DNA of 64,000 nucleotides from Pecten maximus. Its lineage: Eukaryota. The position numbers were made by a program, and so were the translations under genes. The notes under the pieces were generated by a model. It was not told the origin of the DNA. It searched no databases and worked only from the letters and a program-made list of their open reading frames with translations. This document shows positions 45,308 through 50,275 of this stretch, piece after piece. How positions within the stretch are numbered: position 1 is the stretch's first letter; each line of letters starts with the position of its first letter. The stretch is taken from assembly GCF_902652985.1 (NCBI RefSeq), contig NC_047015.1, positions 43,028,001 through 43,092,000 on the forward strand, in the 5' to 3' direction.

Positions 45308-48300
45308 TCATAGTCCATTGTACATACTGTAACACTGTGGGTGGTACTTGTGTGGCCCAGTGTCCTGTAAAACACCAGAGGGCGAACAGATCCAGGGGTC
45401 AAAGGTTATATTCTGCCACATATTTAACTGGTGCTGCAGCTGATGATAAACCTTTGCGTGACTTGGATCATAAGCTAGATTTTGGAGTTCTTTCGGGTCA
45501 TTCACTATGTTAAAAAGCTCCCACTGGTCTCTGTAGTAATAGTTATGAAGAGTTTTATACCAGTGTGTGTCTTCTCCTCGCCGTGTTCTGTTCAGTAGGT
45601 CCTGGAATGTTCTTGAAATGAAAAAATCTTGATCTATTGAAAACGGCATTTGAAAGTTAATGTTCTGGATGAGTTTATATTGTTTGTTTCTCACCACCCT
45701 CATTGGGTAATACATTGTTACCTCATGAAGACTATGGCTGGCGTACACAGTATCCCATGATTCCTTTGGTTCTTCCTCTAGCAACGGAAGTAAAGATTTT
45801 CCGGTTAAGGTCACATGATTTCTGAGGATCTTGTAGTGAGGATATTTGACACCAAACCAGTCAAGCACTGTCGGCAGAATGTCCACATGACTCAACATAG
45901 CATCACTTCTCTGAAATCACAAAATTATTTTCAAATGTATCCATACAAAAAAAAAATATTTCAATTAAAATCTCCCGATTGCCCCCAATTAGTGAAATTA
46001 TTTAGTCTGCAGGAGAAATGTTTAAAATTGTTCACCCACCTGTCCCCAGCGCTTGCTATGGTACGGTGAAGACAAGATGAACGGTTCAGCCAAACCGGAG
46101 TCGTACAAGTTGGTACGGCCATTTGGGAAAGGAATGCCGTTGTCAGAGGAGTACATGACCAGGGTGTCATCTGCGTGGCCTGCTAACTCCAGCTCCTTCA
46201 GTATAAGGCCTATACCTTAAAGTACAACATAGAAACAAAGAATGATATGTTTGGAATATATGTACAGTACTTTTTTTCATGGACATTATAACTTATACCT
46301 GTTGTAACTCATATTCTGCTATGTTGTATATATGGAGTTTTAACAGATGTGCTGTTGTCCTATAATCATGGAGTCTTAACTGATAAAGTATTATTCTATG
46401 ACTATCCTCATTGTTTACCTTGGTCCATACGATTGATAGTGGTATACTGGGCAGCTATGTCCAGTCTGGCCGCCGGAGTGTCCTGCACAAAATAGGGAAC
46501 TACCACAGATGCTGGGTCAAATATTACAGGCTTCCAATCGGGCATAGTCCCATCAGCGCCAAACTTCTCACAGAACTGTCCGTACTGGGGATGAGTGTGG
46601 CCACATCGATGGGGATCATGGAATGCCACATACAGAAAAAATGGACTGGAATATATAGATTTTGGATTAGTTAATTTATAAAAAATTAATGGGAAACAAA
46701 GCATCAAAATTGATACAAATCCCCTCCCTCCCACTTAAACCACCTGATCAAAAGGAGACAGGCATTTATGTAAACAAAACAGATTTTGAGCTTGACACTA
46801 AAAATCTGAAAATCAAACTAAAATGAATTAATACTCTATATTTCTCTAATGTTCAACAAAATCAGAAATCATGACAGTGTGTGACTTAAATTGCTTTCAA
46901 TAGTAATGATGACCTTGACCCTGATTAATCACAGAACCTCCATCAATAACCAGTTATACAGTATACATATAGATTAAATAGAGCAAGGAAATTCAGGTAA
47001 TTTTCATTTTATGATATTTGTTTGTTATATAAGGAAACTTTCACCTGGAAGAATTCTGCTGCAGGAATTCACGGACATGTTGTCGAATAAAGGTGATATT
47101 TCTTCCTGTTTGTAGAATACTGTGGCCATCAAGTTCAGTGACAGAGTAATCAAATGGGTATACCGACTCTGGCCCAATATTCTTCTTACCAATGATACCT
47201 GTCAATTATAACAAATGTCAATATTGTTCTATATCAAAAGCAAGTAATACTGAGGTGGCTGTGTTTTGACATTTGTCTATAATCATTTTTGTACTGACAC
47301 CTGTCTCTTGTCTTACCTGTTCTGACACCTGTCTCATGATTCCTGTCTCCTTTCTTACCTGTTCTGACACCTGTCTCCTGATCTACCTATTCTGACACCT
47401 GTCTCCTGATCTACCTATTCTGACACCTGTCTCCTGATCTACCTGTTCTGACACCTGTCTCCTGATCTACCTATTCTGACACCTGTCTCCTGATCTACCT
47501 ATTCTGACACCTGTCTCCTGATCTACATATTCTGACACCTGTCTCCTGATCTACTTTTTTTTGACACCTGTCTCCTGATCTACCTATTCTGACACCTGTC
47601 TCCTGATCTACCTTTTCTGACACCTGTCTCCTGATCTACCTGTTCTGACACCTGTCTCCTGATCTACATATTCTGACACCTGTCTTCCGATCTACCTATT
47701 CTGACATCCGTCTCCTGATCTAATTATTCTGACACTGTCTCCTAGCGGTCCTTCTTTTTTGACACCAGTCTCTCGATCTACCTTTTCTGACACCTGTCTC
47801 CTGATCCACCTACATTTATGTATTCGGACACGGTCTCTTGATCTGCATTTTCTGACACCTATATCCTGATCTACCTATTCTGACACCTGTCTCCTGATCT
47901 ACATATTCTGACACCTGTCTCCTGATCTACCTATTCCGACACTGCCTCCTAGATGTCTTACCATTTTTGACATCTGTCTCCTGATCTACCTGTTCTGACA
48001 CCTGTCTCCTGATCTACCTGTTCGGACACCTGTCTCCTGATCTACCTATTCTGACACCTGTCTCTTAGCTGATGTCTTACCTTTTTTGACACATGTCTTA
48101 CGATTCCTGTCCTATTTGTCTTACCTGTTCGGACACCTGCCCCCTGACGATTCCTGTCCTATATGTCTTACCTGTTCGGACACCTGCCCCCTGACGATTC
48201 CTGTCCTATATGTCTTACCTGTTCGGACACCTGCCCCCTATATGTCTTACCTGTTCGGACACCTGCCCCCTGAGGATTCCTGTCCTATATGTCTTACCTG

Positions 48301-50275
48301 TTCGGACACCTGCCCCCTATTTGTCTTACCTGTTCGGACACCTGCCCCCTGAGGATTCCTGTCCTATTTGTCTTACCTGTTCGGACACCTGCCCCCTGAC
48401 GATTCCTGTCCTATATGTCTTACCTGTTCGGACACCTGCCCCCTGACGATTCCTGTCCTATATATCTTACCTGTTCGGACACCTGCCCCCTATTTGTCTT
48501 ACCTGTTCGGACACCTGCCCCCTGAGGATTCCTGTCCTATATGTCTTACCTGTTCGGACCCCTGCCCCCTATTTGTCTTACCTGTTCGGACACCTGCCCC
48601 CTGAGGATTCCTGTCCTATTTGTCTTACCTGTTCGGACACCTGCCCCCTTCAGCAGCGATGGTAGACTTGTGACCTCTTCAAATGACTGAAAGTGGTGGT
48701 AGCCATTGAACAGTCCATACATTCCATTTTGGTGCTGTGGTAACCCTGACAACACAACTGACCTGGAAACATCATATAAGGCTATTTACACATGATAACT
48801 AGAATCAACCTGAATGTTGTGAGAGTGGATATCCTACCCGAAGACTAAAGGAGAATTCCTGCTAGCCTGGTATTGGAACCATCATACCTAATTGTGTGAA
48901 AACTGAATATTGATTACAATTAAAGAATTAATAACAAGGTTTTATAAAATATGAGATAGGTTTCAGACACAAACATCAGGTGATAATTAACCTCTCGAGT
49001 AGGATTTAAATAACACCAGATACTTTGATGTCTAATAATATGTATGATACAATAACATCATGTACAAAATTTAATGTGCAATATACCTGCTAGGGGAACA
49101 ACTGCTCACTGATGTAAATGCATTGTTGAAAACCAAGCTCCTCTGTGCTAACTTGTTCAGGTTTGGTGTCTTACAAATGTCATTGTTGTACACCTGTGTT
49201 TCAAATCCAGCATCATCCCCTAAAACAGAATGAATAACTAGAAAATGTCTGTAAGACATCAATGTCCCATTCCCACTTGACACTCTAAAACACAGTTTGG
49301 TGAGGATCGCCTCAGCAGTTCCTGATATTAGCTAGTTACATACAATGGGGACGGAACGGGACGTCATTTCATGGCAGGGGCATAAAAATATCAAATACAT
49401 GCACAGCTGTTCATGTGTAATAGGAAGGAGTAATCAAAAATAGCCTGCCTGTGGTGGGGCTTGAACTAGCGACCCTTTCCTCTCAAGGCAACTCAAGGCA
49501 AAATATGTGTTGAAACATCTTAATTACCACTAGGTTAAACGGAAATTATCACTAGCCTGAGCTAATAAGGTGACATTATACTCTCAATTTTTACACTACT
49601 CCCTCCTTCACAAAGTCTTCGCACCAAAACCCAGGGTTCATTTGCTCAAAGGAAGCCTTTCAATCTCCATAGCTTTCCCTTGAAGTGGTTTAAGGGAAAT
49701 TAATATTTAGTAATCTGAGCTAGTAAGGTGGCCTATACCCTTAACTTATACATATGTACAACCCCCTCCCCAAATGTTTATTCACAGTCTCACTGACCCT
49801 CCAATCCAAGCTTTTAAAATATGTTTCACACCGTTTGGACCAAATCCATGGCAGTTATTCTTCAATCTTACAAAAAATGCAGATTTTATAGAATTGCTTT
49901 GTTTCTTTTAAGTTACTTACAAATTACTTACCTTTTTCAACTGTATGAACACTATGTAAATACTAAAGGCAACGAATGGACACACTGTTGACTGATTTAT
50001 TAATTCATATACTTATGATAATCTGGGAAGTCAAAGTGAAACTGAAACCTGATGAAAAACATCAAGAACCGGATATCGATTTTGACGATAACTAGTGACA
50101 TCCTAGCCTATACAGGTACGTTTTTAGAAAACACAGGACAGAATGGCAACTTACCAAGTATTAGCAGGACGTTCCTAGGTTGTGCTGGGTATATTAATGT
50201 ACTTATACCGAGAAAAACTGTGAAAATGACATTTGCAAACATTTCTGGACTGATATGTCTTGTGATCAAAACCAT
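45308..50275 (-). CDS. SGSH: N-sulphoglucosamine sulphohydrolase (sulfamidase), 7 coding exons, ~515 aa
   Basis: Exons (-): 50275-50155, 49219-49087, 48762-48629, 47198-47045, 46645-46419, 46215-46040, 45910-45308 (1548 nt). There is a signal-like N-terminus, then [26 protein letters not shown] (formylglycine motif), [57 protein letters not shown] and [13 protein letters not shown]. A possible second start ATG lies at 50242. Confidence 0.96.
47294..48649. repeat. Composite minisatellite filling SGSH intron 3: 47/32-bp units near exon 3 grading into 28-bp units
   Basis: Units CCTGTTCGGACACCTGCCCCCTGAGGATTCCTGTCCTATTTGTCTTA (47 bp), CCTGTTCGGACACCTGCCCCCTATTTGTCTTA (32 bp) and TCTGACACCTGTCTCCTGATCTACCTAT (28 bp). 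The first unit overlaps the coding end of exon 3. Confidence 0.95.

Follow-up and report, generated by a model that had tools for sequence, protein, structure and literature searches.

In human F7, a 37-bp VNTR of intron 7 reiterates the 5' splice site (donor), and its first unit straddles the exon/intron boundary (passages of Borensztajn et al. 2006, PMC1557585). According to the same passages, F7 minigenes used only the most upstream working donor, with no difference between arrays of 1 to 12 units, and the next donor took over once the first was mutated. The other arrays described there vary in their behaviour: the true site alone is used in LMNB2 and PDGF, two of 25 pseudo-sites, the nearest, are used in IFI6, and CBS, with 15-20 units, likewise makes use of its two nearest. 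The 31-bp VNTR of CBS intron 13, c.1444_1467+7(16_21), contains 24 exonic and 7 intronic bases per unit (passages of PMC2630376), and its copies number 15-21 over both sources. Among invertebrates, the so-called mirages of the amphioxus genes BflGb6, BflGb9 and Adh3 consist of tandem copies of exon/intron boundaries in units of 10-160 bp which, in the passages of Ebner et al. (2010, PMC3087553), undergo concerted evolution inside the cluster, with exclusion of the boundary units, and for which normal splicing is reported. In humans, many tandem repeats alter splicing in cis (9,537 according to the passages of PMC10078293), the donor-spanning layout lying outside these passages.

Here we describe an array of this class in the SGSH gene of the scallop Pecten maximus. 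Literature on scallop minisatellites and intron splicing yielded nothing on such arrays by title or abstract start, most subscription journals being outside the scope of the search.

Layout of the array in SGSH intron 3

The gene lies in a window (the whole stretch of DNA analysed) of 64,000 nt. Two of its exons, 48762-48629 and 47198-47045 on the minus strand, align respectively to residues 77-118 and 120-165 of human N-sulphoglucosamine sulphohydrolase (SGSH, PDB 4mhx), the sole PDB sequence matched by either of them, and use of the first donor joins residues 118-120 without a gap. When the gene is modelled as seven exons on the minus strand (50275-45308) and the donor at 48629 is used, the translation is identical to the RefSeq protein P0122 (515 aa); exon 48762-48629 is therefore coding exon 3 of SGSH. 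The last exon has a single match in the Pecten maximus genome; its nearest homologue among the matches listed is a scallop SGSH-like protein (94%), and its homologue cluster contains P0122, which is labelled Pecten maximus in RefSeq. The coding exons are as follows:

50155-50275, minus strand: SGSH coding exon 1 (tblastn match of P0122, translation; joined to exon 2 in 4/4 runs)
49087-49219, minus strand: SGSH coding exon 2 (spliced contigs and translation of the model)
48629-48762, minus strand: SGSH coding exon 3, 134 nt (4mhx residues 77-118; unit parse)
47045-47198, minus strand: SGSH coding exon 4 (4mhx residues 120-165)
46419-46645, minus strand: SGSH coding exon 5 (translation of the model giving P0122)
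46040-46215, minus strand: SGSH coding exon 6 (translation of the model giving P0122)
45308-45910, minus strand: SGSH coding exon 7, the last, ending in the stop codon (translation; single genome match)

Intron 3 is 1,430 nt long, of which 1,334 nt (93%) are array, followed by a unique tail of 96 nt with the acceptor. The array parses into 41 units of 27-47 nt, and unit 1 begins 21 nt inside coding exon 3 (48649-48629), thus straddling the real exon/intron boundary. An earlier note on this DNA had described the intron as tandem copies of its own exon end and donor, passing further out into 28-bp units with AG/GTAGAT (a slash marks the cut) and filling nearly all of the intron; the unit parse and the P0122 model bear this out. 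The parts of the array, and the sites within it, are:

48638-48643, minus strand: weak exonic CAG/GTG site at offset -12, in frame, which would remove 4 residues (site scan and translation; run through by all 3 contigs listed that reach it)
48623-48631, minus strand: authentic donor CAG/GTAAGA, cut after 48629 (gives P0122; contigs of runs X17 and X14 leave here)
48100-48649, minus strand: proximal young block of 13 units (eight of 47, four of 32 and one of 44 nt), with the true donor and 12 decoys (unit parse)
48546-48548, minus strand: in-frame TAA within the second decoy donor, which stops every extension of at least 126 nt (translation)
47700-48099, minus strand: older middle, most diverged, with units of 27-38 nt (unit parse; 28-mers differ by 12.6%)
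47371-47699, minus strand: distal homogeneous block of 28-nt units with weaker AG/GTAGAT sites (unit parse; 28-mers differ by 3.1%)
47294-47370, minus strand: terminal units, including a 42-nt long-type unit, with two CAG/GTAAGA donors, cuts after 47359 and 47317 (unit parse)
47199-47294, minus strand: unique 96-nt intron tail with the acceptor (sequence parse)

Beyond the true donor there are 12 further ACAG/GTAAG sites, at offsets of 47, 79, 126, 158, 205, 252, 299, 331, 378, 410, 457 and 504 nt, all of them correctly placed in the earlier note, and the 28 nt made up of exon end and donor are exact in 10/12 of these copies and differ by one base in the other two. The count of extra donors needs enlarging, however, because two more CAG/GTAAGA sites occur near the far end of the array (offsets 1270 and 1312), together with an AAG/GTAAGA site at offset 548. 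In all, 14 copies (12 proximal and 2 distal) are identical to the true donor over the 9-mer CAG/GTAAGA. The last long-type unit also reverts to GTAAGA and carries the internal motif of the 47-mers. The array is 70% purine, its TRF scores of 948-1075 indicate local duplication beyond chance, and its proximal part found no second match in the Pecten maximus genome in a search that skips common words.

The SGSH array has the structural features of the F7, CBS and mirage arrays, namely a boundary-spanning unit, a reiterated donor and minisatellite units homogenised block-wise, and it is a mollusc example of this already described class. It resembles F7 in its boundary-spanning first unit, in its identical reiterated donors and in that the upstream donor leads to the normal product, but the 5-9 units of F7 each include 4 exonic bases, whereas the scallop units contain 21 exonic bases and mix lengths of 47 and 32 nt. 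The scallop array has 12 near-perfect copies and, beyond them, an older 28-nt block; its 41 units occupy 93% of the intron. The 24+7 unit of CBS is close to the 21+7 core of the scallop, although in CBS two pseudo-sites are used besides the true donor and length polymorphism is proven, while the scallop array is known from one assembly. The amphioxus mirages share with it an invertebrate host, boundary copies and block-wise homogenisation; they belong to another phylum, and haplotype length differences are demonstrated in amphioxus.

Donor choice and the fate of decoy products

All 12 proximal decoys lead to a premature stop, located 281-978 nt upstream of the last junction, and translation of the 12 agrees with the earlier note in that extensions from offset 126 onward end at the TAA at 48548-48546. 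A stop comes in frame by the second copy because each donor contains TAA and the unit lengths, 47 and 32, are both 2 mod 3; since the stops follow from these two properties, the lack of any productive decoy among the 12 does not point to design or selection. The broader statement that every alternative donor is non-productive holds for the 12 decoys but fails for the exonic site GCAG/GTGTCC at offset -12, which is in frame and would yield 511 aa; the three contigs reaching it, among the contigs listed, all read through.

We compared contigs from four runs (X17, X14, X10 and X6), belonging to four studies, with positions 48440-50400. Run shares below 0.2 were left out as evidence. Exons 1, 2 and 3 are joined in 4/4 runs. 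In X17, on record as RNA and with a depth of 6.9, a contig of 1,232 nt runs through exons 1-3, departs at 48626, which corresponds to the donor plus a GTA common to exon 4, and continues for 882 letters off the stretch after the first donor. The X14 contig also departs at 48626, with 6 letters remaining, and we infer that both contigs continue into exon 4. The X10 contig ends at 48667, short of the donor. In X6, with an exon depth of 18.4, the exon contig halts exactly at 48626, 3 nt past the donor, and there are two array contigs of 75-76 nt with depths of 9.5 and 14.4; among the contigs listed, the unique parts of introns 1 and 2 are without cover. A k-mer graph of the window predicts a stop 154 nt past the donor for spliced molecules only, 9 nt for unspliced molecules only and 3 nt for both, and the stop at 3 nt in X6 therefore indicates that spliced and read-through paths coexist, with retention and decoy use both predicting this same stop.

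Exit at the first donor is thus seen without a branch in 2/4 runs, with a branch in 1/4, and 1/4 stops short, contigs giving no shares of each form. The first donor is likely the exit of the main RNA, judging from runs of which X17 and X14 are shallow (depth ~7) and from contigs, which drop rare forms and whose depth is a poor measure. Strict selection of the exon-proximal donor, as put forward in the earlier note, agrees with the P0122 model and with the X17 and X14 contigs, but X6 also reads into the array, as unspliced RNA or through decoy use, and we take this possible minor leak as a lead only. Masking of the decoys by RNA folding found no support in a comparison with 20 shuffles (z -0.74).

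The layout of the array and the reading frames of its decoys are observed directly, and the reading that probably accounts for them is that of a neutral donor-spanning minisatellite, in which the first donor would be chosen by position and rare errors would be cleared by NMD. By analogy with the work on F7, the donor nearest to the upstream acceptor would win, defining an exon of 134 nt as against 181-638 nt for the decoys, and any rare decoy product would carry a premature stop and be removed by NMD.

We consider it rather unlikely that the decoys form a leaky series, in which a minority of the RNA (~15-20% in X6) uses the nearest decoys or keeps intron 3 and is lost to NMD, with the loss growing with allele length and so tuning SGSH output, the second possibility raised in the earlier note. 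The branch of X6 at the donor and its array contigs, found alongside bare introns 1 and 2, are consistent with such leakage, as is the identity of 12 decoys to the true donor over the 9-mer, each with its premature stop; CBS and IFI6 both make use of proximal pseudo-sites (passages of PMC1557585), and one paper associates the CBS VNTR, in its title, with reduced enzyme activity. However, because collapsed repeats multiply depth, X6 would look the same if its allele were longer and traces of pre-mRNA or DNA were present: the array contigs correspond to ~3-4x per copy with the allele of the window, versus 18.4x for the exons, and a longer allele would lower the per-copy figure. Moreover, read-through and decoy use produce an identical break, X17 and X14 have no branch at the donor among the contigs listed, and donor choice in F7 was unaltered by 1-12 units (passages of PMC1557585). 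Similarly improbable, in our opinion, is the wider proposition that the X6 read-through represents array-caused decoy use or retention scaling with allele length, and that scallops carry many donor-spanning VNTRs, at least three of them within ~50 kb here, as heritable, NMD-coupled dials on housekeeping genes.

Recursive splice sites are AG/GT ratchet points, and the SGSH intron is like them in its many intronic YAG/GT sites; however, it is only 1.4 kb long and no pyrimidine tract precedes any of its 61 YAG/GT sites (share at most 0.45, mean 0.27), which argues against recursive splicing.

With 12 equal donors at known spacing and a predictable stop for each, the SGSH array is a natural experiment, in a non-mammalian gene, on how one 5' splice site is chosen from several identical ones. 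Because the last 21 nt of the exon recur in the copies, a short read must extend at least 22 nt upstream of a junction before decoy and true donor can be distinguished. Were leakage to scale with allele length, arrays of this kind would contribute to differences in expression among scallops.

Turnover of the array

The earlier note had seen in the array a divergence gradient recording polar expansion from the exon, and this part of it is not supported in that form. Mismatches to the 28 nt of exon end and donor number 0-1 in the first 13 units and then jump to 4-14, and beyond this step divergence shows no trend with distance (rho -0.26, p 0.19), which rules out a smooth polar gradient. The step instead separates two separately homogenised blocks, which flank an older middle. 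In the proximal block the eight 47-mers differ pairwise by 3.2% and the four 32-mers by 1.6%; for nine 28-mers of the middle the figure is 12.6%, and for ten of the distal block it is 3.1%. This pattern suggests two or more episodes of turnover, which bypassed old units at the boundaries, rather than growth in one direction, and the amphioxus mirages are described likewise (passages of PMC3087553).

In terms of a neutral donor-spanning minisatellite, a piece of 28-47 nt across the boundary of exon 3 and intron 3 would have been duplicated locally in tandem, and slippage or unequal exchange would then have enlarged the array and renewed its units during two or more bursts. The block beside the exon may have been re-seeded from the exon end, and the distal 28-nt block may have drifted and been homogenised separately. 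An origin of the intron itself from tandem AG/GT duplication was discarded, because the acceptor lies outside the array, at the end of the unique 96-nt tail.

The residues at the exon end are KGAGVRTG in Mizuhopecten, KGAGIRTG in Ylistrum and KGSGIRTG in Argopecten. Since these residues agree, exactly or almost so, between Pecten maximus and other scallops, the exon end is older than the array and the exon is the source, with the changes in the distal units representing drift. In a wider set of homologues, the downstream motif is present in 115/120, and in those with the motif T and G at the join are close to fixed (105/115 and 114/115), upstream positions being variable. We also rejected that a distal unit might be a fossil of an older exon end, because its amino-acid-changing differences are contradicted by the proteins of other scallops; one synonymous difference is unaffected by this argument.

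It is very doubtful that the array began as an unrelated intronic 28-nt minisatellite with a common AG/GT-like core, which only afterwards took in or overwrote the exon end and so gave rise to the proximal block. The distal block is 67-73% like other Pecten maximus arrays, several of which share a short core, but these arrays were chosen for likeness and their periods differ (15-30 nt). Likewise, CAGGT and AGGTA are about twofold enriched in the units of an evenly spread genomic sample (11/102 and 16/102, versus 4-7 expected), although this excess is lost after 512 tests. Capture is further opposed by the agreement of most distal units with the exon end plus donor at 20-25/28, by the retention of GTAAGA and of the 47-mer internal motif in the last long unit, and by the exon-end residues in common with other scallops, which argue that the exon was not overwritten. 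Finally, tandem arrays are hard to assemble, but an artefact, or a badly wrong length, is extremely unlikely, given that the assembled intron 3 contains no N, that its units carry patterned variants, and that the 75-76 nt contigs of the independent X6 run contain a tandem pair of donors, of which one is exact and the other differs at two positions, as many as separate real units of the window.

Other arrays in Pecten maximus

Using a period of 15-200 and at least 3 copies as criteria, we found 121 arrays in 40 evenly spread 10-kb stretches (399 kb), or 303 per Mb, so that minisatellites are dense in this genome. Their units show no excess of donor motifs in these stretches (4/121 versus ~3 expected, p 0.38). 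In the 200 kb beside the window, near-consensus donors occur in 7/46 array rows versus 1.4 expected, two of the rows being one array, an excess that may reflect gene density.

A candidate upstream frame was present for 20 arrays, of which 17, including 10 of the 13 spread arrays, were scanned against Pfam with one frame each. Pfam matches were obtained for 2/6 flank arrays and 0/10 spread arrays, as well as for the SGSH exon itself, with the proviso that short peptides often miss. As judged by eye, none of the window arrays at 23005, 34181, 36066, 38741, 60282 and 22060 starts in an exon. Both flank arrays with matches, in an SLC26-like gene (L005) and in CaMKII (L008), lie within 50 kb, start in exons confirmed by Pfam and repeat their own donors. 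The same donor-spanning layout occurs in another array within 50 kb (L006), whose exon candidate is without a Pfam match. There are thus at least two further donor-spanning arrays within 50 kb, in the SLC26-like gene and in CaMKII, and L006 is probably a third.

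Exon-end arrays beside the window

Two arrays that involve an exon end and its splice donor were found in the 200-kb flank, in stretches L005 and L008, and probably a third in L006 (in motifs, a slash marks the splice position):
L005:3966-5022 (assembly contig C1, about 43.106 Mb), plus strand: SLC26 exon-end array, 52-nt unit, about 20 copies
L008:6688-7804, minus strand: CaMKII exon-end array, 27-nt unit
L006:4149-5304, plus strand: array of CAG/GTGAGT donors

The SLC26 unit comprises 46 exonic bases together with the exon's donor, and the match of this exon to Pfam Sulfate_transp scores above the Pfam cut-off. 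Its first donor is GTATGT, while some copies carry GTAAGT, which is closer to consensus. The CaMKII array begins where an association-domain exon ends; its donor is TAG/GTAAGT, and GT has been lost in some copies. The third array begins inside a likely 97-nt exon, which has an acceptor and an open frame and gave no match to Pfam; this exon perhaps belongs to the same SLC26 gene.

Donor-like arrays and motif content

Two other arrays with donor-like motifs lie in the window:
23005-24360, minus strand: 30-nt array with about 32 strong TG/GTGAGT donor-like motifs
36066-36175, plus strand: 51-nt repeat with three CAG/GTAAA motifs

No exon was found where the former begins. The latter begins about 20 nt past what is probably a genuine donor; judged by eye, the exons of that gene resemble leucine-rich repeats and coiled coils.

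In 40 evenly spread 10-kb stretches of the assembly, minisatellites occur at 303 per Mb and cover 33% of bases. CAGGT and AGGTA are about twofold above expectation in the spread units and four- to fivefold above it in the flank units, an excess that loses significance after 512 tests.

Further repeats and exonic differences

Contig comparison and inspection of the window also revealed:
32087-33651, plus strand: long, perhaps coding, Asp-rich repeat region of GAT and GAC, adjoining a 500-nt run of N
49230-49630: interspersed repeat inside SGSH intron 1 (contig comparison)

The intronic repeat attracts many unrelated contigs, with depth up to 2,224 in sequencing run X6. Two exonic differences from the window, at 48670 and 49182, are common to runs X17, X10 and X14 and absent from X6, and are probably alleles.
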